IMG/VR virus record: IMGVR_UViG_2711768060_000001
Location: 1-12,660 of that record
Direction: 5' to 3' (one strand)
Length of the DNA stretch: 12,660 nt
From: a virus
Taxonomy: Duplodnaviria > Heunggongvirae > Uroviricota > Caudoviricetes
This document shows positions 1 through 12,660 of the stretch, piece after piece (within the stretch, counting starts at the first letter, position 1; every line of letters begins with the position of its first letter). The notes beneath the pieces are model-generated. The model worked only from the letters and a program-made list of their open reading frames with translations. It had not been told where the DNA came from and searched no databases. A program made the translations under genes and the position numbers.

Positions 1-297
1 TACCGACACCACCGATACCAGCACCGCACACAGTGCATCCGCCGATGTACCGTCATAACCTGTTTTTGCTGCAATCCAGGCTGACAGCACGCGCGCTCCC
101 AGCACGCCGACAATGAACGACACCAGAAAATGTGCCGCCACCCGCCAGGCTGAAAGCGCCTGCGGCATCGTTGCCACAAACAACGCTCCGGCGAACGCCC
201 CAAACACAATCCCGAAATCCGTCCCGGTAAACAGTCCGAATACCGTCGCCCCGCCGAGCGCAGCGGCTGTACCAGAACCGGATAAGGGTTCAGACAT
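1..297 (-). CDS. Partial ORF (3' end beyond window edge) for a Gly/Ala-rich multi-pass membrane protein; possible holin at the start of a lysis cassette
   Basis: ATG at 297-295 preceded by AGGAGA (revcomp of 300-310). Translation MSEPLSGSGTAAALGGATVFGLFTGTDFGIVFGAFAGALFVATMPQALSAWRVAAHFLVSFIVGVLGARVLSAW... shows about three hydrophobic segments. Position is downstream of Q-like gene, morons and terminators. Holin call is inferred from position and topology only. Confidence 0.5.
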   Translation of the reverse strand, partial: MSEPLSGSGTAAALGGATVFGLFTGTDFGIVFGAFAGALFVATMPQALSAWRVAAHFLVSFIVGVLGARVLSAWIAAKTGYDGTSADALCAVLVSVVSV

Positions 298-459
298 ACT
301 TTTTCTCCTGTAAAGAAAAAAGGGCCACCAGCAGCCCGCAAAAAAAACGCCCACCAAAGGCACCCGCAGATGCCTTTGGTGTGGAGTTATTTGATGTGCG
401 CCGGTCGTGGCGCGAGGAAGTGAAATAAGACTTACCTGAAATTAAGGTTAATCTTAGGG

Positions 460-488
460 TTTAAACCATTTTTAATGCTTAGTAATAT
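460..488 (+). promoter_or_regulatory. Candidate sigma70 promoter (TTTAAA-N17-TAATAT) for a short plus-strand transcript
   Basis: -35 TTTAAA at 460-465, 17-nt spacer, -10 TAATAT at 483-488; no ORF with RBS follows; intrinsic terminator about 55 nt downstream. Confidence 0.25.
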
Positions 489-494
489 GAACTC

Positions 495-572
495 GTCCCC
501 AGAAGGGGCCAATACTTATTCTTCTTCACGGACTTTGTCCCGCGGCGTTAATCCGACAGCCGCGCTTTTTTT
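495..572 (+). ncRNA. Candidate small RNA of about 80 nt between the promoter above and the terminator at 541-572
   Basis: No coding potential; internal hairpin CCCC-AGAA-GGGG (about 500-511); ends in stem CGCGGC/GCCGCG plus T7. Purely structural inference. Confidence 0.2.
541..572 (+). terminator. Rho-independent terminator (plus strand)
   Basis: Stem CGCGGC (541-546) / GCCGCG (559-564), 12-nt loop, followed by T7 at 566-572. Confidence 0.55.
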
Positions 573-608
573 GCGCCATATTCATCGCTGACTTATATGG
601 CATTGCCA

Positions 609-643
609 CACGGACATTATCAGTGTCCGTGTTTTCTTTTTTT
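609..643 (+). terminator. Rho-independent terminator (plus strand), second of a tandem pair
   Basis: Stem CACGGACA (609-616) / TGTCCGTG (624-631), 7-nt loop, followed by TTTTCTTTTTTT (632-643). Confidence 0.55.
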
Positions 644-652
644 GAATTCAGA

Positions 653-681
653 ATAAAAAAAACCGCCCAGTGGAGGCGGTT
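653..681 (-). terminator. Rho-independent terminator (minus strand), downstream of the tRNA genes
   Basis: Stem AACCGCC (661-667) / GGCGGTT (675-681) with the plus-strand A-run 653-662 giving a U-run after the hairpin on the minus strand. Confidence 0.55.
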
Positions 682-843
682 GGTCAATGCATGAGATCAA
701 TCATTTTTATTGTAATAGAAATCGAGGTGTCGGGTGCCTCCCGAAATATCCATCCCTACAACAGATATTGTGATTCCCCGTTAAACCACTATATAAACCA
801 CCCTCGCACTGAGGAACACCTCTGCGGTGCTGTTTACAACACC

Positions 844-905
844 AGAATGATGCATCACCGACCCTGCCAGGAAATACAAAATCTCCACCGATAATGCATC
901 ATTCT
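844..905. repeat. Perfect 13-bp inverted repeat CAGAATGATGCAT / ATGCATCATTCTG separated by 36 bp
   Basis: Arms at 844-856 and 893-905 are exact reverse complements; spacer contains CACCGA ... CCACCGA. Lies in a non-coding stretch between the tRNA genes and the terminators. Confidence 0.6.
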
Positions 906-1045
906 GCTGCCGTAAAAATTCAGCACTGAGGCTACACCCGACCTCAAATCATAGCCAGAGAACAGAATACCATTTAAACACAATCCGCTCCCACGTAATA
1001 AAAAATACGCCAGTGCTGTAATACAATAAGGCTTATTACAAATGT

Positions 1046-1120
<75 letters not shown>

Positions 1121-1123
1121 ATA

Positions 1124-1199
<76 letters not shown>

Positions 1200-1260
1200 A
1201 TTGGTTCTTCGGGGGAGCGATATCACCGATGAACAGGAGTTCCCCTCAGAACCGTTGCGC

Positions 1261-1288
1261 ATAATAACGGGCAAAAAAATTACTTCAA
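1261..1288 (-). promoter_or_regulatory. Candidate promoter for the tRNA-Thr/tRNA-Gly transcript
   Basis: On minus strand: -35 TTGAAG (1288-1283), 16-nt spacer, -10 TATTAT (1266-1261), then GC-rich GCGC discriminator; about 55 nt upstream of the mature tRNA-Thr 5' end. Confidence 0.35.
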
Positions 1289-1376
1289 CCAAAATAATCC
1301 GAAAAATAATCCCGGATTTGTAAATATATGCATATTTTTTATTTTTTCTAAAATAAAGAAATTACCAAATACACAT

Positions 1377-2423
1377 TTAACGATTATTTTTTATTTCAGT
1401 TACAGTCTGATTAAATCTCTCTTCTTCCAGTTCCACGCCAATCGCACGGCGTCCCAGTGAAAGTGCCGCTTTTATTGTTGAGCCTGAGCCCATGAAAAAA
1501 TCAGCAACCAAATCACCCGGACGGCTGCTGGCAGTAATTATCTGGCGCAACATATCGGCTGGTTTTTCACAGGGATGTTTGCCAGGGTAATACTGCACAG
1601 GCTTGTGCGTCCAGACATCCGTATACGGAACGGCAGCCGATACGGAAAAATAACGCCGCAGGGATTTGTACTCTTCCAGCAGGCTGGCATATTGCTGGTT
1701 CAGTTCACTGTATGTGCTGACCAGCTGGTGGTGTGGCTTTTCCGGTTCCCCGCGCTGATGTTTTTCTGCCGCAACACGCGCAAACAACACCTGCAATTTG
1801 TTGTAATCACCCTCGTTCGGTAATTGCCACTGACTGGTACCAAACCAGTGCGAAGCCATGTTTTTCTTTCCGGTGGCTTCCGCTATCTGTTTTGACGTTA
1901 TCCCCAGTGATTCACGCGCATCGCGAAAGTAAGAAATCAGCGGGGCCATGACGTGCTGTTTTAGCTCGCGCCCCTTTGCCGCATAGCCGTCATTTTTGGG
2001 CTGGTATGGCCCCTGATAATGTTCTGCAAACAGAATGCGTTCTGTTGCCGGGAAATACGCCCGCAGGCTTTCCTTGCTGCATCCGTTCCAGCGTCCGGAC
2101 GGCTTCGCCCAGATAATGTGGTTCAGCACATTAAAGCGTTCACGCATCATGATTTCGGTGTCAGATGCCAGGCGATGACCACAGAACAGGTAAAGACTTC
2201 CGGCAGGCTTCAGTACCCGCCAGAACTGCGCCAGACATCGGTCCAGCCATTTCAGATAATCATCGTCGCCCTTCCACTGGTTATCCCAGCCCTCGGGCTT
2301 CACTTTAAAGTATGGCGGGTCTGTGACTATCAGATCGACAGAGTTTTCCGGTATGGTCTGGATAAATTCCAGGCAATCAGCGTTGATTAACTCACAACTG
2401 GATATTTTTACAGTATTAGCCAT
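1377..2423 (-). CDS. Orphan DNA methyltransferase (N6-adenine or N4-cytosine, DPPY-type, beta-class motif order)
   Basis: 348-aa ORF with ATG start; motif IV TDPPY near the N-terminus (LIVTDPPYF) and motif I FxGxG near the C-terminus (DFFMGSGST). No restriction endonuclease partner nearby. Confidence 0.85.
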   Translation of the reverse strand: MANTVKISSCELINADCLEFIQTIPENSVDLIVTDPPYFKVKPEGWDNQWKGDDDYLKWLDRCLAQFWRVLKPAGSLYLFCGHRLASDTEIMMRERFNVLNHIIWAKPSGRWNGCSKESLRAYFPATERILFAEHYQGPYQPKNDGYAAKGRELKQHVMAPLISYFRDARESLGITSKQIAEATGKKNMASHWFGTSQWQLPNEGDYNKLQVLFARVAAEKHQRGEPEKPHHQLVSTYSELNQQYASLLEEYKSLRRYFSVSAAVPYTDVWTHKPVQYYPGKHPCEKPADMLRQIITASSRPGDLVADFFMGSGSTIKAALSLGRRAIGVELEEERFNQTVTEIKNNR

Positions 2424-2559
2424 AGATCAATAAGCACTTCTCTGATAGGCTCATACCGCTTTTGCGCAAAGCAGATGGGCCTGAGGTTTGCTTGTGACCC
2501 CAACGCACGAGCAGATGGCTGGCAGGTGCCGCTAACACCCACCAGCCGCCCATTACCAC

Positions 2560-2587
2560 AAATAAAAAAGCCTTCGCTAAGGAAGGC
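2560..2587 (-). terminator. Candidate rho-independent terminator (minus strand) between the small ORF and the methyltransferase gene
   Basis: Stem GCCTTC/GAAGGC (2570-2587) overlapping the TAG stop of ORF 2577-2894; plus-strand A-run 2562-2569 gives the U-run on the minus strand. Confidence 0.45.
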
Positions 2588-2894
2588 GTCTGTAACAACC
2601 GAACTGATAATCTGCCAGACCCGCCATAACAAGCTGAGTCAGTATTAACTGGCAGCGTTCGCGTGAAAGGTAAGTATTCTGCGCAATTTCCCCGACGGTC
2701 GCCGGTTCGGTGACGCTTAATTCATTAAACACCACTCTGGCAGTTTCGGTCATATCCTGCTGTTTTAGCATGTCTTTTTCCCTTTTCTGGTTAACGTGAC
2801 ATACCATTAACTCTTGTCGGAACAGCCAGCAAGCTGAAAGACCAGTATTCGCAACCACCAGCGCGTTTAATGTTCTGTACCGTTTTTCTGACAT
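2577..2894 (-). CDS. Small hypothetical protein, possibly winged-helix/HTH-like; start uncertain
   Basis: 105-aa ORF; the ATG at 2894 directly abuts the terminator U-tract with no SD. Internal ATG at 2771 has AAGGGA 8 nt upstream and would give a 64-aa product (MLKQQDMTETARVVFNELSVTEPATVGEIAQNTYLSRERCQLILTQLVMAGLADYQFGCYRRLP). Confidence 0.45.
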   Translation of the reverse strand: MSEKRYRTLNALVVANTGLSACWLFRQELMVCHVNQKREKDMLKQQDMTETARVVFNELSVTEPATVGEIAQNTYLSRERCQLILTQLVMAGLADYQFGCYRRLP

Positions 2895-2925
2895 AAAAAA
2901 AAACCTGCCAGGCGACAGGTTTTTT
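2895..2925 (-). terminator. Strong rho-independent terminator immediately downstream of the Q-like gene (tR'-like)
   Basis: Hairpin ACCTG-CCAGGCGA-CAGGT (2903-2920) flanked by A9 (2895-2903) and T5 (2921-2925); on the minus strand the hairpin is followed by U9. Confidence 0.6.
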
Positions 2926-2975
2926 GCTTACTTTGCCATCGCGTAAAAAATCGGCAAAATATCAGATTTGCACGA

Positions 2976-3004
2976 AATATATGCCTTTTAATCTACTTTT
3001 GCAA
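2976..3004 (-). promoter_or_regulatory. Candidate late promoter (pR'-like) overlapping the 3' end of the Q-like gene
   Basis: On minus strand: -35 TTGCAA (3004-2999), 17-nt spacer, -10 TATATT (2981-2976); predicted transcript of about 70 nt ends at the terminator 2895-2925. Confidence 0.35.
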
Positions 3005-3677
3005 TACCTTGCCTGGACAATATCGTCTTTTGTTTCGAACGTGTTCTCGCCGCAAACAATAAAGCTTCGCTATCCAGCTGATGAAAAATGTGTTTCATTG
3101 CAACCCAGTGACCAGTAAATGTTTTGGACCAGTTTTTGGTTGTTATTCCCGCCAGTAATGCCAGATCCTGGTATTCATAACCTTCTCCACCAAAAAGTTC
3201 TGCTTTTACTGCCTGCGCCGCCAGCCAGATTAATTTTTTCAGGCGTTCCCGTGTTTTCTCTGCAATTTTCCTGTTGCCAGAATGAGCCTTAAACTCTTCC
3301 CATGCCCAGCGGGTTATGGTGACCTGATACTCCCAGCAAATATTTCCGCTGTAACACCACAACAACCAGGTTTTATGAGGTTCTTCAAGAGACAGAACAG
3401 CCCGTCGCCATGAGGATGTCGAAAACTCAACCTGACTTACCAGAGGAATTGACGTCCCCTTCGCCAGCGATTGTTTCCCCGGGATTGGTGGATTATCCCG
3501 CGTGATAATTTTTCCAGTCACTTCATCGCGGTACCGGATTTTTTTACGCCTGTAACGCCCTGTATCGAACATGGCATTCTTCTGCCAGGCTTCAAGCTGA
3601 CCTTTTGTTGCCCCACTCAAATCGGCGGTGGCGATAATGAGCTGCTCACGAACAAACTGTAAATACTGGTTATTCAT
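2988..3677 (-). CDS. Putative late-gene antiterminator (Q-like)
   Basis: ORF track start at 3683 is GTG; the ATG at 3677 overlaps the rusA stop (ATGA). Product about 229 aa. Q assignment rests on synteny (after rusA and a YdfU-like gene, directly before a promoter plus terminator) and on recalled size of Qin-type Q proteins, not on a verified motif. Confidence 0.55.
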   Translation of the reverse strand: MNNQYLQFVREQLIIATADLSGATKGQLEAWQKNAMFDTGRYRRKKIRYRDEVTGKIITRDNPPIPGKQSLAKGTSIPLVSQVEFSTSSWRRAVLSLEEPHKTWLLWCYSGNICWEYQVTITRWAWEEFKAHSGNRKIAEKTRERLKKLIWLAAQAVKAELFGGEGYEYQDLALLAGITTKNWSKTFTGHWVAMKHIFHQLDSEALLFAARTRSKQKTILSRQGIAKVD

Positions 3678-4039
3678 GCGCACTCCAGCTCTGTGATTTT
3701 TATCCCCAACCGACCACCAGGAACGACCTGACCGCGCACAATATTAATTTCATCAAACTGCTCGTCGTCTATGAGCAGCCCCGCATGCGTCAGCGCATCC
3801 AGTGGTGCTTTCAGGATATTGTCCAGATCACGACGGCGTTTATCCGGTGGCTCTGCAATAATCTTTATCGCCAGCCTTCCGGACAGATTTAATTTCAGCC
3901 GCTGCTGGCGAACAATTAGCGCCACATCACGGCGATAACGCTCACCGACTTTTGATACAAAATATGTGCTGCCACGACGCCGCCAGTAAGTATTCACCGT
4001 CGGCGGATAAGGCAAAACAAATTCTATGCGTTCGGTCAT
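3674..4039 (-). CDS. rusA: RusA-family Holliday junction resolvase
   Basis: 121 aa with RusA hallmarks: LPYPPTVNTYWRRRG near the N-terminus, PDKRRRDLDNILKAPLDALTHAG, C-terminal GGRLGIKITE; about the same length as E. coli RusA. Confidence 0.9.
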   Translation of the reverse strand: MTERIEFVLPYPPTVNTYWRRRGSTYFVSKVGERYRRDVALIVRQQRLKLNLSGRLAIKIIAEPPDKRRRDLDNILKAPLDALTHAGLLIDDEQFDEINIVRGQVVPGGRLGIKITELECA

Positions 4040-5095
4040 TTATGCTTTCCACTTCAGGACACCCGAATTTCTCGCGTGCATTAAAAAACGAATCAGCAAC
4101 AACAGCTGGCTGCCGTGTTTTTCTTCAAAATCTTTTACTCCGGCGTGCAGTTCGTTATGACATTTACGGCACAGCGGAATAACAAACAAATCATCAGCCT
4201 TTGTTCCCATCCCTCCCAGTCCATGACCAATGATGTGATGCGGATCATCTGCCTGATTGCCACACGTCAGGCATTTCTGTGTTTTTACCCAGCGCGTGTA
4301 TACAGGCATCTCTTCCCGTTGTGGTTTCTGGCGCTGGAGATACTGAGCCGGTGACTCCGGATCAACGGCAATGCTGACCACCGTCTTTTCCTGTGGCGGG
4401 TTTTGCTGGTGGGCGTGAGGCAGCGGCGCAAGATTTTTTGTGCGCTGTTTCAGTATGCTGGTGGCGGTCTGTTCTCCCGGTACGATGTCGCTTTCGCGGT
4501 ACACCGAGCGAATTTTTTCCGCACGCAACCCCAGAGAACGACGTAATACTACCTCCGGTAGTGCGTCCGCCACCTGATTGCAGACCGCCCACCAGGATAA
4601 TTCAGCCAGCGATAATTCCCGCTCCTGTGTGCCATTCACTGCATGGCGTATGACGTCAATCATCCATGCTGACAGGTTTTGGTGAGCAAGTTGCCCGAGT
4701 GATTCTGAGGTCTGGTCACGCAACTGGTTGTCGCAGTGCCAGCACAATACCATCGCGCCGGTGCCGTAACGATATATGACGGTTTCACTGTGATGATAAT
4801 CGCCGTGTGGCCACTGGCAGGATTTAATATGGCGCAACAGCCAGTCAGACAATGCACCAGCACCACCGGCAGCACGAATTACCCGCTCATCGCTGAAAAA
4901 TGGCAGTAATGATTTATCTTCCGCCAGCGGCTGGCGAACGGCAGGAACGACTCCGGACGGCAGACCGCGCATACTTTTCGGTTCCGGTTCCACCAGTACT
5001 CTGCCGTTATGGAATACCTGCATGGATTCACGGCCAGGCTTAACGATAACCAGTCCGAGTTCCGGTACCAGAACAGGTCGAAGCAATACCCGCAT
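4040..5095 (-). CDS. ydfU: YdfU-like prophage protein (DUF968-like) with a C-terminal Cys/His HNH-like motif
   Basis: 351 aa; ATG at 5095 with GGAGG 5 nt upstream; C-terminus CLTCGN...DPHHIIGHGLGGMGTKADDLFVIPLCRKCHNELH. Family name recalled from Qin-prophage YdfU (similar length), not searched. Confidence 0.7.
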   Translation of the reverse strand: MRVLLRPVLVPELGLVIVKPGRESMQVFHNGRVLVEPEPKSMRGLPSGVVPAVRQPLAEDKSLLPFFSDERVIRAAGGAGALSDWLLRHIKSCQWPHGDYHHSETVIYRYGTGAMVLCWHCDNQLRDQTSESLGQLAHQNLSAWMIDVIRHAVNGTQERELSLAELSWWAVCNQVADALPEVVLRRSLGLRAEKIRSVYRESDIVPGEQTATSILKQRTKNLAPLPHAHQQNPPQEKTVVSIAVDPESPAQYLQRQKPQREEMPVYTRWVKTQKCLTCGNQADDPHHIIGHGLGGMGTKADDLFVIPLCRKCHNELHAGVKDFEEKHGSQLLLLIRFLMHARNSGVLKWKA

Positions 5096-5096
5096 G

Positions 5097-5375
5097 TTAC
5101 CTCCAGATGCGTTGCTGGAATGTGCGGGATGGACGTGGTGGGCGTTCGGAATAAGGAAGCCTGACGGAAATTATCCAGTGTCGGAAGTCAAGACTGAGGT
5201 CTTTCCTGACCTCGCGTCCGCGCCTGCGATAACACTGAATCAGCCATTCGGCCTGTTCTTCAGTGCACGGATCATGCTGGTACCAGTCAGTTTTAAAGAC
5301 GTGTGAACGCCGCCCGTACCGGATGGCAGGGTCGGCTGAGTTATCAGAATTGTGAAATTTGGTCTTGTGCGCCAT
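5097..5375 (-). CDS. Hypothetical nin-region protein; start uncertain (ATG 5375 or TTG 5429)
   Basis: ORF track start at 5429 is TTG; first ATG at 5375 gives 92 aa (MAHKTKFHNSD...). The TAA stop at 5097-5099 lies 1 nt from the start of the next gene. Confidence 0.5.
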   Translation of the reverse strand: MAHKTKFHNSDNSADPAIRYGRRSHVFKTDWYQHDPCTEEQAEWLIQCYRRRGREVRKDLSLDFRHWIISVRLPYSERPPRPSRTFQQRIWR

Positions 5376-5444
5376 CTGTTTTCTCTGCTGGCGCAGCAGG
5401 TGCCAGTTGTTCAGGCTGGCGTGCGGCAATATTGTCTCTGATTT

Positions 5445-5475
5445 CTGTTGTCGTCAACAGGCAGCGTGCTATCAT
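5445..5475 (+). promoter_or_regulatory. Candidate promoter with overlapping palindrome for the parDE-like operon
   Basis: Palindrome CTGTTG-TCGT-CAACAG (5445-5460) overlapping -35 TTGTCG (5448-5453); 16-nt spacer; -10 TATCAT (5470-5475); about 35 nt upstream of the antitoxin ATG. Confidence 0.35.
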
Positions 5476-5510
5476 CGAATAGTGTTCTATCCTACTCCGT
5501 GAGGTTTACC

Positions 5511-5768
5511 ATGCGTACAACCCAACAATTCAGCATTACATTAACTAACGAGATGGCTGACATGGTGCGCGCCCGTGTGGCTTCCGGTGCCTATGCTTCA
5601 GAAAGCGAGGTCATTCGTGAAGGGCTTCGCGCACTGAATGAGCGCGATAAAGCAATCGAAGCGTGGTTAACGCATTCAGCCGCCCCCTCTCTTGATTCTA
5701 TCCGCGAAAATCCAAACAACGGACGCTCCATTTCACAGGTTCGCGCCGCGATTCGATCCGGGAAGTAA
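5511..5768 (+). CDS. parD: ParD-family (ribbon-helix-helix) antitoxin
   Basis: ATG at 5511 with GAGG 8 nt upstream (ORF track start 5448 is a non-ATG extension). 85 aa, motif YASESEVIREGLRALNERD typical of ParD antitoxins; directly upstream of a ParE-like toxin. Confidence 0.8.
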   Translation: MRTTQQFSITLTNEMADMVRARVASGAYASESEVIREGLRALNERDKAIEAWLTHSAAPSLDSIRENPNNGRSISQVRAAIRSGK

Positions 5769-5773
5769 TCTGC

Positions 5774-6073
5774 ATGACATATGAAGTCATCATTACTCCT
5801 GAGGCCGAACAACAAATAATCAACCTGCACAGATATATAACGGAGAAAGCAGGAAGCGTCATTGCTGACAATTATGCCAATGCGCTTCTTGATTATCTTG
5901 ATGGGTTTTCTACATTCCCGCATCGGGGCAATAAACGCGATGATATTCGCCAGGGGATGCGGGTAACTCATTTCCGCCACAGAACGATTATTGCTTTTGC
6001 CGTTGATGGCAGAAAAGTCTTTATTGTCGGTATCTATCATGGTGGGCAAAGTTATGAAACCGATTTCTTATAA
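5774..6073 (+). CDS. parE: ParE-family toxin
   Basis: 99 aa, 5 nt after the antitoxin stop; ParE/RelE-fold pattern (MTYEVIITPEAEQQIINLHRYI ... RKVFIVGIYHGGQ). Confidence 0.85.
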   Translation: MTYEVIITPEAEQQIINLHRYITEKAGSVIADNYANALLDYLDGFSTFPHRGNKRDDIRQGMRVTHFRHRTIIAFAVDGRKVFIVGIYHGGQSYETDFL

Positions 6074-6156
6074 ACTTTTACCCACATCATTCCGGTGTTA
6101 GAATAAACCGTCCGCCCCCTCTCTTACTGGCGGATTCGTAGGCTATATAAATCAAA

Positions 6157-6190
6157 GATCCCGGCTCATGTTTGTGCCGGGATCTTTTTT
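6157..6190 (+). terminator. Rho-independent terminator after parE, placed between convergent genes
   Basis: Stem GATCCCGGC (6157-6165) / GCCGGGATC (6176-6184), 10-nt loop, T6 at 6185-6190. Confidence 0.6.
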
Positions 6191-6197
6191 CGGCGAT

Positions 6198-6281
6198 TTA
6201 TCCCCAGCGGCAAATCGAATACACCACCAGCGCCACAGCCATTGCGATTCCTGCCGTTGTAAATGCCTCAGGCCAGGTCAT
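6198..6281 (-). CDS. 27-aa hydrophobic single-helix peptide, translationally coupled to the upstream 301-aa gene
   Basis: Not in the ORF track (under 60 aa). ATG at 6281-6279 overlaps the TGA stop of ORF 6278-7183 (ATGA); GGAGGA lies 10 nt upstream. Translation MTWPEAFTTAGIAMAVALVVYSICRWG, TAA stop at 6200-6198. Confidence 0.35.
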   Translation of the reverse strand: MTWPEAFTTAGIAMAVALVVYSICRWG

Positions 6282-7183
6282 CGTAAAACATCCTCCACAC
6301 CAACCAGTCCGTTCTGCTTCAGATATTCCATCGCCTTATCAGGTAGATTGCTTGATTTATTGACGCTTTTTAACGAACTGGCTAATCGCTTAACCAACAT
6401 TGTTAATTCGTTAACCTGTTTTCCGGATGCTTGTGGATTGTCAGTTTTACCAGAAGTGGCGGTACAGTCGGCGTTCCCACTCTTCACCTCCTGCGGCGGC
6501 TCCGGTAGCGGCATCCAGTACAAGGCGTTCCCTAACCACGATAAAGTGCCGTCGCTCAACTCCACGTATTCCCCTTGTACCTGTCCTGCCATATACTCGC
6601 CGTGCTTTGAATAAATTAAAACCCAATCATCTTGCGCGGGAATCCGCTCACTACAGCTTATCCAACCATCCTTAGTTGCCGGGGAGCTGGTTGACGAATT
6701 CTTATTTTCCCGAAAGTTTCCGGCCTGAAACATAGCGGCGCGGTGACACCAGATAATCCAGCCAATCGCCATATCCCATGCCATGTATTCGCTACCGCCA
6801 TTTTTTGCCCTGCGGCGATCTACAGAATCCCCGAAATGCTTCTCCATAAATAACTCATAGGCAGCCCGTTCATCCGGCACTACCAGCATTGGCGGCGTGG
6901 CGTATAGCTTACGGGTCTGAACACCTGCCCCCTGGCATTTCTCTTCCTCAACAAATCTTTCGAAAGCATATTCCCCGCAATCTTCCCATTCTCCCCATTC
7001 ATCATATTCTGCATCCCACTGGCGATACTGATATGCCACCGGTTCTGCTACCAGCGATGCCAGCGCGATACGAAACACATTAGCAAGCAGGCTATTTGAA
7101 GATTGGTTATCGTGCGCCGCGTCGCTCAGGAAGCCAGTGATGAACGATTTAATCTCCACGTTTTTTCTGGTAATAGTGGTCAT
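6278..7183 (-). CDS. Hypothetical prophage protein (301 aa); C-terminal half may be DUF551-like
   Basis: ATG at 7183 with GAGGA 8 nt upstream; start overlaps the stop of the upstream 69-aa ORF (ATGA). Trp/acidic-rich middle (YQYRQWDAEYDEWGEWEDCGEY); the domain guess is from memory and low confidence. Confidence 0.75.
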   Translation of the reverse strand: MTTITRKNVEIKSFITGFLSDAAHDNQSSNSLLANVFRIALASLVAEPVAYQYRQWDAEYDEWGEWEDCGEYAFERFVEEEKCQGAGVQTRKLYATPPMLVVPDERAAYELFMEKHFGDSVDRRRAKNGGSEYMAWDMAIGWIIWCHRAAMFQAGNFRENKNSSTSSPATKDGWISCSERIPAQDDWVLIYSKHGEYMAGQVQGEYVELSDGTLSWLGNALYWMPLPEPPQEVKSGNADCTATSGKTDNPQASGKQVNELTMLVKRLASSLKSVNKSSNLPDKAMEYLKQNGLVGVEDVLR

Positions 7184-7389
7184 TTGTTAATCCTCAAAAC
7201 TTTATGCCCGGGTGCAAAAGCACGCGTTTTGTCTTTGCTTATTCGCCAACCATCCTTGCGCGCCTCTTTTGCACAGCCAGCCCATGACGTACCGATATAC
7301 TCACCAAAGTCTGGCGACTGATATTTGCCATCCGTACACTGGCGGCAATCACAATAGAGATGCATGGTATAACTTGCGGCAATACCCAT
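7180..7389 (-). CDS. Small Cys-rich (putative zinc-binding) hypothetical protein
   Basis: 69 aa, MGIAASYTMHLYCDCRQCTDGKY...GTSWAGCAKE; ATG directly follows the upstream TGA stop (TGAATG) with AAAGGAGG SD. Confidence 0.65.
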   Translation of the reverse strand: MGIAASYTMHLYCDCRQCTDGKYQSPDFGEYIGTSWAGCAKEARKDGWRISKDKTRAFAPGHKVLRINK

Positions 7390-7749
7390 TCAGCCTCCTT
7401 TGATGCCAGTGTTTACAACCAGGCAGGCCTCTTTGAGTATCCAGTCAACAGCGTCTTTCCATGCTCCGGTTTCGACTGGCGGATTTTCACGCTTAACCTG
7501 TTCATAGAAGCGCACTGCTTTAACCAGTCCTTCTGATGTCACCGGGGCTGGCGTGGCAGTGAATAAGGCCTGAATCTCATAGCTCGGCCTGTCGTTGCAA
7601 TCCTCTTTTGTCGGTACATATTTCCAGTCACCAACCCACATCTTCTCCTGAAAGTCCGTAACGCCTTTTTTCACATAGCGATATCTCCATGCAACTGGTT
7701 TTGCCTGCCCTACCGTTTCATGCCCTTCCTGATAATTAATCTCGCTCAT
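7390..7749 (-). CDS. Hypothetical prophage protein (119 aa)
   Basis: ATG at 7749-7747 overlaps the stop of the upstream 58-aa ORF (ATGA); no recognised motifs. Confidence 0.7.
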   Translation of the reverse strand: MSEINYQEGHETVGQAKPVAWRYRYVKKGVTDFQEKMWVGDWKYVPTKEDCNDRPSYEIQALFTATPAPVTSEGLVKAVRFYEQVKRENPPVETGAWKDAVDWILKEACLVVNTGIKGG

Positions 7750-7922
7750 TCATCGCCCCACTCATCACAATATGCTTCGACAGGTGTTTTTCCTGCTTCG
7801 TAGTCATCACGCCAGGCTTCAGCATCAGCAGCACTTCCACCACGTAACTCTGCATAATCCATTAACAGTTCATGCCATTCTTCAAAACTGACGTTGTATT
7901 TAGTTGAACCAAAATCAGCCAT
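7746..7922 (-). CDS. Small acidic hypothetical protein (58 aa)
   Basis: Not in the ORF track. ATG at 7922 preceded by GAGGAGGAAG; translation MADFGSTKYNVSFEEWHELLMDYAELRGGSAADAEAWRDDYEAGKTPVEAYCDEWGDE; its stop overlaps the next start (ATGA). Confidence 0.5.
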   Translation of the reverse strand: MADFGSTKYNVSFEEWHELLMDYAELRGGSAADAEAWRDDYEAGKTPVEAYCDEWGDE

Positions 7923-8097
7923 TTTGTTCTTCCTCCTCGTCTTTTATTTCGTGATATGAGTAATTGCAGTAGTTAAAGAAAATTTCTTTTGCTTCGTCAT
8001 GAATTTCATCAGGTGTTGCGTCATCGTCCACTTCGAATACATCCTCAAAATCTCCACCAGCTATTCCCGTTTCAATAATTATTTTGAACTTTCGCAT
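7915..8097 (-). CDS. Small highly acidic hypothetical protein (60 aa)
   Basis: ATG at 8097; product is rich in D/E (…DFEDVFEVDDDATPDEIHDEAKE…KDEEEEQNG); 3' end overlaps the next ORF start by 8 nt. Confidence 0.55.
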   Translation of the reverse strand: MRKFKIIIETGIAGGDFEDVFEVDDDATPDEIHDEAKEIFFNYCNYSYHEIKDEEEEQNG

Positions 8098-8168
8098 TTC
8101 ACTACCGCCTTTTCGGGTGGCCTCCTGATGTTCTGAGGGTGCAGAAATCCCTCCTGTTAAGGATTAAT

Positions 8169-8185
8169 ATTTAGCAGTGCTAAAT
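8169..8185. repeat. AT-rich perfect palindrome ATTTAGCA-G-TGCTAAAT in the intergenic gap
   Basis: 8-bp arms around a central G at 8177; lies between the stop of ORF 8190-8936 and the start of ORF 7915-8097. Confidence 0.5.
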
Positions 8186-8189
8186 TTAA

Positions 8190-8936
8190 TTAACTGCGGG
8201 AAAAATCAGTAATCTGTCGAACAATATCCCGGTGCCTGTTCAACTCCCGCAGCGCGGCGCAGATACGCTCCCACTTCTGGACATGATTTTTCGCCCGACG
8301 CAGTTCGCGATTTGCCATATGCAGCGATGGCAAAACCAGGTCATCCGCTTGTGTTTCGGTGAACGATGGCAACGACTGCACAATGTCCGCCACAGTTTCT
8401 GTTTTAATATCTTCCTGTGTTGCAGCCTCCTGTACTGGTAACGCAACACCTGCGGGCTGAGGAAAGGCCTTACCATCAGTTTCCGCTACCGATGCTGCTT
8501 TCGGCTCTGCTGGTAAATTATCGCCCGGTATGCAGTAACGAAATTTACCGCCCTGATTTACGCGAATCAGACGACCTTTGCTGATTGCCATTGCCAGCGT
8601 TGAAGCCACTTTGCGGGATGTTGTACCGAACAGCGTAGCCAGTTCATCCGCCGTTTGTGGGCCACGTTGTTCAATCGTCGAAGTTAAATCGCTCTCCGAA
8701 ATTTTCGTCACTGTTGCCGTAGTGGTTTCTTCCGGCAGTACTGCCTGTGCTGGCTGTCCCTGCTGAACGTTGTTATCAGCCACACGCCAGGTGTATACGC
8801 TTCTATCAACGAAGCCAGCCTTTTTCAGTTCCCACAGCTCGTTCAGCACTTCTTCACGACTGATATCAAGTCGCGCTGCCAGTTCTACCGACGTGGCTTT
8901 TCCCATTGCTTTCAGTGCGTCAAAAACGGTCTCCAT
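8190..8936 (-). CDS. Prophage protein with N-terminal winged-helix-like region (DUF1627-like); start reassigned to internal ATG
   Basis: ORF track start 9002 has a poorly spaced SD and would overlap the P-like gene; the ATG at 8936 has GGGAGG 8 nt upstream and gives 248 aa ([45 protein letters not shown]...). Family name from memory. Confidence 0.7.
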
Positions 8937-8970
8937 TAAAATTTCCTCCCGGTAAAAATTACTTCTCAAC

Positions 8971-9636
8971 TCAAACAAACCCAGCCGCTTTCCGGCGTTC
9001 ATATTCCTGTTTCAGCAACTCAATTGGAGTTGGCCCCGACGGGCGTTCTGGTGCAGCCAGTTGCCGCCGTACGGGCGGAACACTGAAGCCGTCACCAACA
9101 TGCTTTGCCCATTTCGCCAGTTGCCGTTCTGCAAGTCGTTTTAACTCCCCTTCGGTCATCTGGCGCTCAATCCCCTTTGAACGCATCTCGAGGCAAATGT
9201 GATACAGCACAGGCTGAGACCACGGGTATTTATCGCTTCCGTCGTATCGCCAGGACTCGTTGCGCCAGCGGCGGTACTCCTCCATCACGGCATCCACAGT
9301 CAAACCAAACGGATTTGCCCCACTTTCCGAAATCAACGCCACAAACTCTGCCAGGTCAGGAGGCCATGTTTCACCCGCCCGACAACGCTCCATGCACTGG
9401 CGGCAGACCTGCCGGATTTGCTGCTCAGTCATCGCGCCAATCTGTGCAATCCAGAGCTTCGAAGGTGCGGCCCCGTTCTTCTGAGTCCAGCGGTTCGAAT
9501 AAACCTCCCCCATGAGTTCCCACAGCTTCCACGCCGTTTCCGTCGCTGATAAATCCGTTTTCACGTTCCCACTGCTCACGTGCTGCCCGAATTTCCTGAA
9601 CTGCCCGTGATGCGGTGCCACCTGGCGTTGCTGCAT
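8971..9636 (-). CDS. Lambda-P-like replication protein (helicase loader)
   Basis: 221 aa; ATG at 9636 with AAGGGGGTGA SD. Segments such as [27 protein letters not shown] and [20 protein letters not shown] parallel recalled lambda P segments (FVAWCREE, YPWKSNAHYWLVTNL, TDAELRRKAADELVHMTARI). Overlaps the O-like ORF by 212 nt in another frame. Confidence 0.75.
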
Positions 9637-10465
9637 GGCTCACCCCCTTGCTGACTGGTTTAACCTGCGCCCTGACGTGATTTACGTGACGGGCGAATTT
9701 CTGCTCCCACTGAACCTGCGTGAAAACTTTCCCCTCCGCTGCCCAGTAGTCCCGGAAGGCGGCAAGTTCAGCAGGTGTAAATTCCGGCTCCGGCAGAGCC
9801 ACTCCCCACAGTGCAGCCCGTTGTCGGAAATCGGGCGACGGATTCCAGCCGTCGGTCATCGGAAATTTTCCGATGGGTTCGCTCAGACCTTCCAGGTAAT
9901 CAGGTTCCGCTGCCTGCAACGGCGCGCCATTCGACTCACTGGTCGGAGCGATCTCGCGCACGCGCGCGCTATGTGTGGGGTTTAATTCTTTATCTGTATC
10001 TGTATCTGTCGTGACTCGTCGTGACATGTCGTGACATATGCGTGACTCGTCGTGACATTCCTCATTCTGTTTTCGTAATTTTTCCCTCTCACGCTGCGCT
10101 CTCTTGCGCTCTGCCGGGGATTTCGCGGTTTGAGAAACGTTACCGTTGTCCTCTTTCAGTACCTGGCGTTTTTCCCATCCAGTGATTAAATCTCCATCAA
10201 GCACCCGCCCCTGCATTGCTTGCAAAATTGAATCAATTACGTCTTCCGTCACATCAAGCGCACTTGCTAAATCTTCCGTCGTGACATCAATGTGACCCCG
10301 TAGTGACACGCCGTGACATGTCGTGACATTTCGTGACGCGCTAACCAGAAGGTGGATATACACCGCCATCACTGTTGCAATCGGCTGTCCTGACACCCTT
10401 GAAATTGTTCGCCACTTAGGGTCATTTGGCATGTCATGCCATAATCTGAGCCAGGCGTTGGCCAT
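9425..10465 (-). CDS. Replication initiator (lambda-O-like role) with iteron arrays embedded in its coding sequence
   Basis: ORF track start 10471 is GTG; ATG at 10465 has AGAGGTGA SD. Positioned directly upstream of the P-like gene. Contains two arrays of GTGAC-core direct repeats and a (TD)3 linker encoded by (TATCTG)3. Confidence 0.7.
   Translation of the reverse strand: MANAWLRLWHDMPNDPKWRTISRVSGQPIATVMAVYIHLLVSASRNVTTCHGVSLRGHIDVTTEDLASALDVTEDVIDSILQAMQGRVLDGDLITGWEKRQVLKEDNGNVSQTAKSPAERKRAQREREKLRKQNEECHDESRICHDMSRRVTTDTDTDKELNPTHSARVREIAPTSESNGAPLQAAEPDYLEGLSEPIGKFPMTDGWNPSPDFRQRAALWGVALPEPEFTPAELAAFRDYWAAEGKVFTQVQWEQKFARHVNHVRAQVKPVSKGVSHAATPGGTASRAVQEIRAAREQWERENGFISDGNGVEAVGTHGGGLFEPLDSEERGRTFEALDCTDWRDD
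9991..10056. repeat. (TATCTG)x3 tandem repeat followed by iteron array A: five (T)CGTGAC repeats at 10-11 bp spacing
   Basis: TATCTG x3 at 9991-10008; GTGAC cores at 10011, 10021, 10031, 10042 and 10052. An alternating CG tract (9951-9970) lies adjacent. Confidence 0.65.
10278..10337. repeat. Iteron array B: six GTGAC-core direct repeats at 10-11 bp spacing
   Basis: GTGAC at 10281, 10292, 10303, 10313, 10323 and 10333, same orientation as array A and about 225 bp from it; inside the N-terminal coding region of the O-like gene. Confidence 0.6.
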
Positions 10466-10536
10466 ACTCACCTCTTCTGATACCGAATCTTTTTACTCAC
10501 GAGTTTCCGGAAGCGATCCGGTATGAATATTGTCAG

Positions 10537-10962
10537 TCAATGTACCGCCACAGCATTTCCTGCCGGGCCACCACGATTCATCTGATCGAACAAAGTGATC
10601 GCTGATGCAACAAACTCGTCGATATCTTTCACCAGGCGCTCCCGTCGCTCGACAAGCTCCCGGTGATATTCCGAACTGTGGCTGCGCATCCAGGCCACCA
10701 GCGGAGGTGGCATTGCCTTTTCGATCGCTGGTAACAGCGCCTGAATTTTTTCAACAGCATCAGGAGTGTCTTTATCTAGCCAACGGAAAATCTTTTGGGT
10801 GTTGAGATAAAGTGCGTTGTGCTTGCTGTCGTTATGCAGAACCGGAAACGTCATACCCAGCTCAAAATAAGCCCTGGTTATTTCAGCTGCCGGAACTTTT
10901 TCACCGTCCGGATGCGCCCAGGCATTCATCGCCATGCGGATGTGTTCATGCTTGATTTTCAT
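10537..10962 (-). CDS. ydaT: YdaT-like protein (Rac prophage family; CII-like, toxic on derepression)
   Basis: 141 aa; begins MKIKHEHI and ends ...VH like recalled Rac YdaT; its start overlaps the stop of the upstream YdaS-like gene. Confidence 0.75.
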   Translation of the reverse strand: MKIKHEHIRMAMNAWAHPDGEKVPAAEITRAYFELGMTFPVLHNDSKHNALYLNTQKIFRWLDKDTPDAVEKIQALLPAIEKAMPPPLVAWMRSHSSEYHRELVERRERLVKDIDEFVASAITLFDQMNRGGPAGNAVAVH

Positions 10963-11218
10963 GAATCAACTCCGGCGCATTTGATGTGTTAGTCTTACAT
11001 CCAACAGGTAAACCGTCGGTTGGGTTAGGATAAATATCAGGGCGAATTTCATGCGGGGTAACTTCCCACTTCATTAACTGGCATAACGGAATTACCTGCT
11101 TTGGGGGAACGCCAAAGCTAAACCATTGCCAAACGGTCTGTTGAGCGACCCCCATATAGCGACCTATTTCAGCTTGAGTGTATTTCTGCCTAATTTTTTC
11201 GCGAGTGCTATCTAGCAT
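10946..11218 (-). CDS. ydaS: YdaS-like Cro-type HTH protein
   Basis: ATG at 11218 with GAGGAGGG SD (ORF track start 11272 is an upstream extension); motif GVAQQTVWQWFSFGVPPKQV...IRPD; divergent from the repressor gene. Confidence 0.7.
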   Translation of the reverse strand: MLDSTREKIRQKYTQAEIGRYMGVAQQTVWQWFSFGVPPKQVIPLCQLMKWEVTPHEIRPDIYPNPTDGLPVGCKTNTSNAPELIHENQA

Positions 11219-11253
11219 TTTGCCCTCCTCTGAAAACGATAAACAAAGCCTAC

Positions 11254-11288
11254 AATAAAAAACTGTATGCAATCAACAGTTTTTTATT
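11254..11288. promoter_or_regulatory. Operator-like perfect palindrome AATAAAAAACTGT-N9-ACAGTTTTTTATT in the divergent promoter region
   Basis: 13-bp arms at 11254-11266 and 11276-11288 are exact reverse complements; lies between the YdaS-like and repressor genes; the same CTGT/ACAG core recurs at 12288-12324. Confidence 0.5.
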
Positions 11289-11326
11289 GTGATGCTTTTA
11301 ACAGTATTTACCTGTAAAATTGAATA

Positions 11327-11728
11327 ATGATGAACGCCCTAGAAGTATCTATGTACAGAATCAGCAAGCTTCTTCAGGAAACTGGATGGAGCCAGGCTGA
11401 ACTTGCCCGTAGAATTGGTGTGACACAACAAACTGTTCAACAATGGGTCAGCGGTAAGGCCACACCTAAAGCCTCAAGTTTGGATAAACTGGTTGAGGTT
11501 ACAGGGCATCCATTGCATTGGTTTTTATTGCCTCCAGAAGAGGGGGAGCAAATTTTCACCCCTGACACGATGAAAATTGGTCCTCGCCAACGCGAACTGC
11601 TCCAAGCTTTTAGTGCGTTTCCAGAGGAAGACCAAGAAAAAATGCTTCAAGAAATCAAAGACAAGAAAAAATCAATGGAAGAAACCATTGCCCGGTGGTT
11701 GGCGGCACAAAAAAGCCGCCGGGCGTGA
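11327..11728 (+). CDS. Prophage repressor, XRE/CI-type HTH, lacking a LexA-like S24 protease domain (RacR-like role)
   Basis: 133 aa; N-terminal HTH (SQAELARRIGVTQQTVQQWVSGKATP); too short for a C-terminal autocleavage domain; divergent from YdaS-like; no SD, with -10-like TAAAAT (11315-11320) ending 6 nt before the ATG. Confidence 0.8.
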   Translation: MMNALEVSMYRISKLLQETGWSQAELARRIGVTQQTVQQWVSGKATPKASSLDKLVEVTGHPLHWFLLPPEEGEQIFTPDTMKIGPRQRELLQAFSAFPEEDQEKMLQEIKDKKKSMEETIARWLAAQKSRRA

Positions 11729-11755
11729 CCACTGTACAAGAAGAGGAGTTATGCC

Positions 11756-11947
11756 ATGAATACAGCCCTTTCTCCGATAGTTTCAGAATTCGAAACTACC
11801 GAACAAGAAAACAGTTACAACGAATGGTTGCGCGCTAAAGTGGCGTTAAGCCTTGCAGACCCTCGCCCCGCAATTCCACATGACGAGGTAATGGCTGAAA
11901 TGGAAAATCTTATTGCTCAAATTGCTGCAACTAACAGGAGCGAGTAA
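11756..11947 (+). CDS. Putative antitoxin of a RelE/ParE-type toxin-antitoxin pair
   Basis: 63 aa; GAGGAG SD; stop overlaps the start of the downstream toxin (TAATG). Assignment mainly by genetic context. Confidence 0.65.
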   Translation: MNTALSPIVSEFETTEQENSYNEWLRAKVALSLADPRPAIPHDEVMAEMENLIAQIAATNRSE

Positions 11948-12234
11948 TGTTACCCATTTTATGGCTACCATCTGCTCGCGATGATTTGCGTCAGATCGTA
12001 ACCTATATTGCTAAGGAAAACATTCCTGCAGCACGCAGACTAAAAATACGTATTGAAACGTCTGTTTTAGCCCTCTCTGAGCATCCATATCTATATCCGC
12101 TAAGTGATCGAGTATCCGGTTTGCGGGAAATTGTGGTTCACCCTAATTATATCGTGTTGTACCGAGTAGCAACTTCAAGCATTGAAATTGCGAATATTGT
12201 GCATGCCCGTCGACAATTTCCCTTCTCTATCTGA
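11947..12234 (+). CDS. RelE/ParE-superfamily toxin
   Basis: 95 aa; MLPILWLPSARDDLRQIVTYIAKENIPAARRL...EIVVHPNYIVLYRV...IEIANIVHARR fits the RelE/ParE pattern; translationally coupled to the antitoxin. Confidence 0.8.
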   Translation: MLPILWLPSARDDLRQIVTYIAKENIPAARRLKIRIETSVLALSEHPYLYPLSDRVSGLREIVVHPNYIVLYRVATSSIEIANIVHARRQFPFSI

Positions 12235-12250
12235 GCCGAACAATTTCCAT

Positions 12251-12277
12251 ACTCCCTCACTCGAGGGAGTTTTTTTG
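12251..12277 (+). terminator. Rho-independent terminator after the toxin gene
   Basis: Stem ACTCCCTC (12251-12258) / GAGGGAGT (12263-12270), 4-nt loop, T-run 12270-12276. Confidence 0.65.
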
Positions 12278-12287
12278 CCTAAAACAA

Positions 12288-12330
12288 CAATTAAAAACTG
12301 TTGACACAAAACAGTTTTTAATTGTAGATT
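12288..12330 (+). promoter_or_regulatory. Rightward early promoter overlapped by a 15-bp-arm operator palindrome (pL-like)
   Basis: Palindrome CAATTAAAAACTGTT-gacacaa-AACAGTTTTTAATTG (12288-12324); -35 TTGACA at 12301-12306 inside it; -10 TAGATT at 12325-12330 (18-nt spacer). Confidence 0.5.
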
Positions 12331-12509
12331 GTTTTTACCAACCCACCCCGCCCCACAGAACGCAGGGCAATACTTCGAGTTACCAGGCAGTGGTCAGGGG
12401 TTAAGTAGCCAGCCCGAGGCGTAAGAACATGACGGCAGGGTTCAACTTTAATAACTATGCAGCAGGTTTTTGTTCCGCTACCCCGGCGTTAAGGGGAAAT
12501 GAGGTCAAC

Positions 12510-12660
12510 ATGGATACTATCGATCTTGGCAACAACGAATCTCTGGTGTACGGCGTGTTTCCCAACCAGGACGGCACATTCACCGCGATGACGTATACCA
12601 AAAGCAAAACGTTTAAAACCGAAAATGGTGCCCGTCGCTGGCTGGAAAGAAACTCAGGTG
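12510..12660 (+). CDS. Partial ORF (continues beyond window), first gene of the rightward early operon; hypothetical
   Basis: ATG at 12510 with GAGG 6 nt upstream; open to the window edge (MDTIDLGNNESLVYGVFPNQDGTFTAMTYTKSKTFKTENGARRWLERNSG...). Confidence 0.55.
   Translation, partial: MDTIDLGNNESLVYGVFPNQDGTFTAMTYTKSKTFKTENGARRWLERNSG

Follow-up and report, generated by a model that had tools for sequence, protein, structure and literature searches.

The Q proteins of the phage 82 family (Pfam PF06323) make up one of three unrelated Q families (PMC9388147; PMC7171158). Their structure and mechanism are still open, and Q82 may not work as a closed nozzle (PMC9388147). The mechanism at the late promoter of phage 82, pR', has been described (bioRxiv 10.1101/651190; PMC4914094), and the Q-binding element (QBE) of pR' is located between the -35 and -10 elements (PMC4914094). 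For 82 pR', Bird, Strobel and Roberts describe a pause element that resembles a -10 and carries an extended -10 (PMC5001585). They also place GCC at +15 to +17, together with an AT-rich stretch ahead of the pause, a U at +25 and pauses at +25 and +26 (PMC5001585).

Here we analyzed a stretch of 12,660 nucleotides, hereafter the window (positions 1 to 12,660 of IMG/VR record IMGVR_UViG_2711768060_000001), in which a Q gene, a promoter, a predicted pause element and a terminator all sit on the minus strand. This cassette very probably represents the late-gene control region of a lambdoid prophage with a Q of the phage 82 family. What we observed directly are the elements in the sequence, how they are spaced and conserved, and the family to which Q belongs, and these are described in turn below.

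The Q gene, the pR'-type promoter and the predicted pause element

The gene content of the window is consistent with a lambdoid prophage right arm. A cI-like repressor gene lies on the plus strand, and the other genes before Q include Cro/YdaS-like and YdaT-like genes along with DnaT-domain and lambda-P-like replication genes, followed by a nin-type region with DUF968 and RusA genes and then by Q itself. The repressor, replication, nin and lysis genes near the cassette look intact. Complete E. coli genomes in our collection are at most 95.2% identical to the window over the cassette stretch, so the exact window sequence is not a described one. We also observed a ParD antitoxin/ParE toxin pair (5448-6073, plus strand) within the nin-type region, between the DUF551 and DUF968 genes, and encoded opposite to the strand of that region. 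The cassette comprises the following elements:

2988-3677, minus strand: Q antiterminator gene of the phage 82 family, 229 aa from the ATG at 3677
2999-3004, minus strand: -35 hexamer TTGCAA of the pR'-type promoter, within the last Q codons (promoter scan)
2982-2998, minus strand: 17-nt promoter spacer, AAGTAGATTAAAAGGCA, which holds the Q stop codon and is the presumed position of the Q-binding element
2976-2981, minus strand: -10 hexamer TATATT of the pR'-type promoter (promoter scan)
2969, minus strand: putative +1, an A, placed by its spacing of 7 nt after the -10 hexamer
2956-2964, minus strand: predicted sigma-70-dependent pause element, extended -10-like, TGATATTTT
2964-2963, minus strand: TG of the pause element, at +6/+7
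2961-2956, minus strand: TATTTT of the pause element, at +9 to +14
2955-2953, minus strand: GCC at +15 to +17
2952-2944, minus strand: GATTTTTTA at +18 to +26, with putative pause sites at +25 (T2945) and +26 (A2944)
2895-2925, minus strand: tR'-type intrinsic terminator, a hairpin with a U9 tract (terminator scan)

The product of the Q gene matches PF06323 (Phage_antiter_Q, E = 1.5e-87) over profile positions 1-215 of 220 and shares 73.9% identity with the Q protein of phage 82 (X92588). This was the sole Pfam match, and no match to the lambda Q family, PF03589, was found. An original prediction for this DNA, made from its letters alone, had called the gene Q-like, and the family assignment and the identity to phage 82 Q bear this out: it is a true Q antiterminator. 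In the ORF list the gene begins at a GTG (3683), two codons upstream of the ATG. A PDB sequence search for a solved structure of the window Q returned chance-level matches only.

The Q stop codon, TAA at 2990-2988, lies inside the promoter spacer, and the promoter therefore overlaps the 3' end of the Q gene. This overlap, and the TTGCAA-N17-TATATT arrangement itself, agree with the original prediction, while its term "near-consensus" was slightly generous for hexamers that match 9 of 12 consensus positions. On their own, the promoter hexamers do not exceed chance in the window, where 15 such sites were found and 15.5 were expected from shuffles. The composite pattern TTGCAA-N17-TANNNT-N10-16-TGNTANNNT matched once in the window and never in 200 shuffles, which is a weak test because the pattern was composed after the site had been seen. 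The weight for the cassette falls on the surroundings of the site and on the comparative evidence.

Several spacer positions are invariant across genera in an 11-locus alignment, as a QBE would lead one to expect. Repeats picked out by eye as candidate parts of a QBE, namely TGCAAA (at -34 and -3) and AGATT/AATCT, were rejected as inconsistent across genera. On the plus strand, antisense to Q, positions 2999-3012 (TTGCAATACCTTGC) match the lambda-type CII box TTGC-N6-TTGC perfectly, and this box has the palindromic TTGCAA in common with the pR' -35 hexamer. For its counterpart in phage 434 the annotation gives a CII binding site with a paQ -35. The E. coli-group loci retain the box; the loci of Klebsiella, Enterobacter and Gifsy-1 have lost it. 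The gene in the cII position of the window is YdaT-like, not lambda CII.

The pause element was absent from the original prediction and was found here in the initially transcribed region. Its -10-like TATTTT matches the consensus at only 4 of 6 positions, and the T-run in the transcribed region ends at +25. When these positions are set against the published description of 82 pR' (PMC5001585), they agree base for base, the comparison being one of described positions and not of aligned DNA. This agreement supports the assignment of the start site to 2969. At the level of sequence the pause element is present, with a putative +1 as its reference point, and the pausing itself is a prediction.

The terminator, the short RNA and the downstream genes

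The terminator consists of an A6 run (2925-2920), a stem of CCTGTC and GGCAGG (2919-2914 and 2909-2904) closed by the loop GCCT, and a T9 run (2903-2895). Counted from the putative start, the hairpin occupies +51 to +66 and the U9 tract +67 to +75, and the stem begins 56 nt past the -10 hexamer. The strong hairpin with a U9 tract that the original prediction placed within 2895-3004 is thereby confirmed. With 12 pairs, counting the A/U extension, and its U9 tract, this is the strongest terminator of the compared set, and its hairpin sequence occurs nowhere else among the 95 compared loci. Being symmetrical (A6, T9), the hairpin also scores as a terminator on the plus strand, but no plus-strand gene ends there and we rejected this reading.

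A transcript that starts at the putative +1 and ends in the U-tract would measure roughly 71-75 nt, about 73 nt, in agreement with the roughly 70 nt of the original prediction. Between this start and the U-tract the RNA has a predicted fold of -23.7 kcal/mol (z = -3.2 versus shuffles). An Rfam search of the window for known families returned two tRNAs only and no family for the short RNA. The short RNA is further predicted to form a second hairpin (UAUUUUGCC...GGCAAAGUA) at +9 to +41 (window 2929-2961, minus strand), which takes in the pause element and is kept in close E. coli relatives. As a conserved 5' feature of the RNA this hairpin was rejected: the consensus fold of the family does not support it and it is deleted in phage 434.

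An ATG at 2894, directly after the U-tract, opens a mechanical ORF of 105 aa (2894-2577), which the original prediction had taken as the next ORF downstream. We find this to be an artifact of ORF calling. Relatives have GTG or GCG in place of the ATG at 2894, phiP27 has lost 1 nt within the supposed N-terminal extension, and in 5 of 10 homologues, including phiP27, the frame is shut 4-6 codons before the conserved ATG. The extension from 2894 to 2772 is thus non-coding, and a gap of 124 nt separates the U-tract from the first real downstream gene. The features downstream of the terminator are:

2577-2771, minus strand: first real downstream gene, 64 aa, beginning MLKQQD and preceded by AAAAGGGAAAAAGAC
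2570-2587, minus strand: second terminator-like hairpin, with a T6 tail, at the end of the 64-aa gene (terminator scan)
1377-2423, minus strand: DNA methyltransferase gene (Pfam PF01555, E = 3.9e-45)
1199-1124, minus strand: tRNA-Thr (ARAGORN and Rfam)
1120-1046, minus strand: tRNA-Gly (ARAGORN and Rfam)
681-661, 381-352 and 337-322, minus strand: three terminator-like hairpins (terminator scan)
1-297, minus strand: start of a holin-like membrane protein gene, from the ATG at 297 and running off the window (translation)

Homologues of the 64-aa gene are annotated as 198 nt/65 aa, with a start about 210 nt past the Q stop, and carry the names "hypothetical" or "TrmB family regulator", the latter being the RefSeq name of the phiP27 copy. 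The 64-aa protein itself gives a weak TrmB match below the Pfam cut-off and is probably a winged-helix (TrmB-like) protein. Further downstream, the three hairpins sit in about 750 nt of non-coding DNA between the tRNAs and the lysis genes, and two of them, in tandem (322-381), lie directly upstream of the ribosome-binding site of the holin-like gene. The ORF list does not contain this gene, which runs off the window. The holin stretch is 99.6% identical to E. coli ECL27977, whose annotation lists a "putative holin", then a second holin and an M15 peptidase, and on this match the holin-like gene is the first of a lysis cassette. It is to pass such a series of terminators, ahead of the lysis genes, that a processive antiterminator is needed. 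Promoter-like sites were also found near the tRNAs (1352-1261, promoter scan), and downstream genes may own promoters as well. Expression downstream of the terminator likely depends on readthrough, as the operon layout and the homology suggest, and the 105-aa ORF plays no part in this argument.

Where transcription starts, that it pauses, and that Q binds and antiterminates are inferred by homology with phage 82, and we propose the following sequence of events. Host sigma-70 RNA polymerase would initiate constitutively at the promoter over the end of Q, with +1 at about 2969. Sigma-70 would then re-bind at TGATATTTT (+6 to +14) and the polymerase would be held in a scrunched pause near +25/+26. 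When Q is absent, the polymerase would escape the pause and terminate at the hairpin and U9 tract (+51 to +75), releasing an RNA of about 73 nt and leaving the downstream genes off. Once accumulated, Q would bind a QBE embedded in the promoter and load onto the paused complex, probably with the help of NusA. The Q-modified polymerase would resist the tR'-type terminator as well as the four further terminator-like hairpins, reading in order through the TrmB-like gene, the methyltransferase gene, the tRNAs and the lysis genes. For annotation, the value of the cassette is that it marks the likely start of late transcription and the terminator that would gate the lysis genes, and that it corrects the spurious 105-aa ORF.

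Conservation across related loci and alternative readings

We compared 99 sequences, which are the window and 98 loci, and 95 related loci were long enough to judge. The set includes phages 434, PPompW and PhiR47_2, three Klebsiella phages, two Enterobacter phages and Gifsy-1, as well as E. coli chromosomal copies, 80 IMG/VR contigs and four E. coli/Shigella flexneri loci. The promoter and a TGnTA pause-like element are kept in every one of the 95 judgeable loci, from Escherichia/Shigella, Klebsiella, Enterobacter and Salmonella. A stricter promoter-plus-TGnTAT pattern is matched by 86 of the 99 sequences; the 13 others are the phage 82 record (X92588), which stops at the Q stop codon, phiP27, which carries a different Q, two loci at a contig end and nine single-base variants.

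In the 11-locus alignment, which covers four genera, TTGCAAAA in the -35 region is invariant, and little or no variation is seen in parts of the spacer, in the -10 and in ATG(T/C)AAATCTGATAT. The -10 hexamer reads TATATT, TATACT or TACATT in all related loci. TGnTAT is invariant in this alignment and appears as TGATAT or TGGTAT in 86 sources, and a TGATAC variant is found in a few loci, including both Shigella flexneri loci. Over the 49 nt from the -35 to the pause element the window shares 80-84% identity with Klebsiella, Enterobacter and Salmonella phages, versus 62-69% for the adjacent Q coding DNA and 42-52% for the 60 nt after the pause element in the same comparison. In Gifsy-1 the promoter-pause-terminator block is intact, with 80% identity, although another gene separates it from Q, which argues that the conservation is not a side effect of Q coding. 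The comparison over 95 loci points to constrained positions of the Q82-type promoter (TTGCAAAA, parts of the spacer, the -10 and ATG(T/C)AAATCTGATAT), which could help to find the Q82 binding element, and to an RNA body and a hairpin sequence that vary freely.

The terminator is conserved in place and in pairing. A T-tailed hairpin starts at +47 to +52 in nearly every locus (+31 in phage 434), with at least four unrelated stem sequences at this position among the relatives. In the consensus terminator helix 96.9% of cells are paired, and 16 cells show double changes versus 5.5 in shuffles and about 0 in slid controls.

Apart from this general pattern, we observed decayed cassettes in Shigella flexneri loci and in some E. 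coli chromosomal copies (L015-L018 and L023-L025), where the pause element reads TGATAC. L016 and L017 lack 1 nt after the -10 and carry a mismatched stem (CCCTCC), and in L015, L018 and L023-L025 the terminator stem is shortened by the loss of one G. These changes suggest that some copies of the cassette are no longer under selection. In two other loci, from E. coli TUM1881 (L007:1213-2150) and A35 (L008:1189-2331), genes are inserted directly after tR', at about window position 2900; the inserted genes are of the PemK/MazF toxin family or the STM1630 family and are flanked by two copies of the terminator hairpin.

Could the hairpin merely end the early-right (Q) unit and act as a recombination linker, with promoter hexamers that are an inactive by-product of Q coding? 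A mosaic joint does lie at the hairpin, with PPompW-like DNA upstream and phiP27-like DNA downstream. Further, phiP27 has a near-identical hairpin after a GIY-YIG nuclease gene rather than after Q, some E. coli strains have moron genes bracketed by two copies of the hairpin, and the promoter hexamers alone do not exceed chance. However, only the -35 and part of the spacer are coding, and it is the non-coding -10, the +1 region and the pause element that are best conserved. The Gifsy-1 block, which is retained at 80% identity with no overlap with Q, speaks against a by-product in the same way, and the positions of the elements match those tested at 82 pR' (PMC5001585). Ending the Q unit and serving as tR' are not exclusive roles. 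The pattern of conservation contradicts an accidental promoter, and we consider it highly improbable that the hairpin is a unit end and linker only. Judged by the mosaic joint and the bracketed genes, the hairpin doubles as a module boundary, which is compatible with a role as tR'.

Loss of function is a separate concern, as the cassette might be an inactive relic of a cryptic prophage in which Q-dependent late transcription has been lost. Many related loci sit in bacterial chromosomes, and relatives show decay in the form of TGATAC elements, a stem mutation in Shigella flexneri L017 and its E. coli twin L016, and shortened stems. No complete E. coli genome matches the window at more than 95% identity over this stretch, so that its state cannot be read off a known inducible phage. 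Yet its Q is full length, all of its cis elements are intact and its terminator is the strongest of the set; the apparently intact repressor, replication, nin and lysis genes next to it also count against a relic, which we regard as unlikely. The short RNA might, in addition, be a trans-acting, Hfq-binding sRNA that alters host physiology in lysogeny, as StxS does. In Stx phages the pR'-tR' RNA functions as an sRNA, and other antiterminated late promoters have been proposed as sources of sRNAs (PMC7547250), and the predicted RNA has a terminal hairpin with a long U tail, A/U-rich single-stranded stretches and a stable fold. Against this, the RNA body, from the pause element up to the terminator, is less conserved than any other part (42-52% identity), the 5' hairpin shows no conservation and phage 434 has lost it by deletion, and the lack of an Rfam family match for the short RNA also counts against an sRNA role. 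A trans-acting function is thus decidedly unlikely; were it true, the rapid turnover of the RNA would mean that different prophages carry different regulators at the same position. We retain, as very probable, the reading of the cassette as a late-gene control region with a Q of the phage 82 family.

Comparison with known late promoters

StxS of the Shiga-toxin phages resembles the window RNA in being a constitutively terminated short RNA that follows a Q-controlled late promoter (PMC7547250), and the processed StxS, at 74 nt, is of similar size (PMC7547250). We saw no sequence similarity between StxS and the window RNA. Unlike in the window, a distance of 258 nt separates pR' from tR' in Stx phages, and RNase E processes the RNA.

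Phage lambda follows the logic proposed for the window, with a constitutive promoter beside Q, a sigma-70-dependent promoter-proximal pause, a nearby terminator that yields a short RNA, and Q-dependent readthrough into late genes, which in lambda are the lysis and morphogenesis genes. Its Q family, however, is unrelated (PF03589 versus PF06323). The 6S RNA of lambda has a length of 194 nt. Lambda tR' terminates at +193 (PMC4914094), which makes the lambda short RNA about 2.6 times as long as the roughly 73 nt of the window. In lambda the pause element lies at +1 to +6 and the pause at +16/+17 (PMC5001585), whereas the -10-like element of the window lies at +9 to +14. The window module thus has neither of the features that mark the lambda family, a PF03589 Q and a pause element at +1 to +6. 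The likeness to lambda pR'/tR' drawn in the original prediction therefore stands for the logic of promoter, short RNA and terminator, and the closest system is instead phage 82 pR', as seen in the PF06323 Q and the RNA of about 73 nt.

Phage 434 (OL657226), which has a Q82-like Q, can be aligned directly. Its promoter and pause element are 84% identical to those of the window over 49 nt, its terminator is annotated 49-74 nt past the Q stop, and it shares the antisense TTGC-N6-TTGC box over the -35. It differs from the window in that about 20 nt of the transcript body are missing, the terminator begins at +31 and GTA replaces GCC.

Phage 82 and the window have a Q of the same family (74% identity), a promoter that abuts the end of Q and a terminator before the late genes. 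About a quarter of the Q residues in the window differ from those of phage 82, and the TrmB-like gene, the methyltransferase gene and the tRNAs that stand between the terminator and the lysis genes of the window are counted as a further difference. The likeness to 82 pR' is drawn from published position descriptions and from alignment to Q82-like cassettes such as that of phage 434. By those descriptions (PMC5001585), 82 pR' has the same extended -10-like pause element, GCC at +15 to +17, AT-rich run and U at +25. The cassette calls for no new mechanism and its organization is as expected: it would be a new copy of a well-studied, experimentally dissected system, that of phage 82 pR'.
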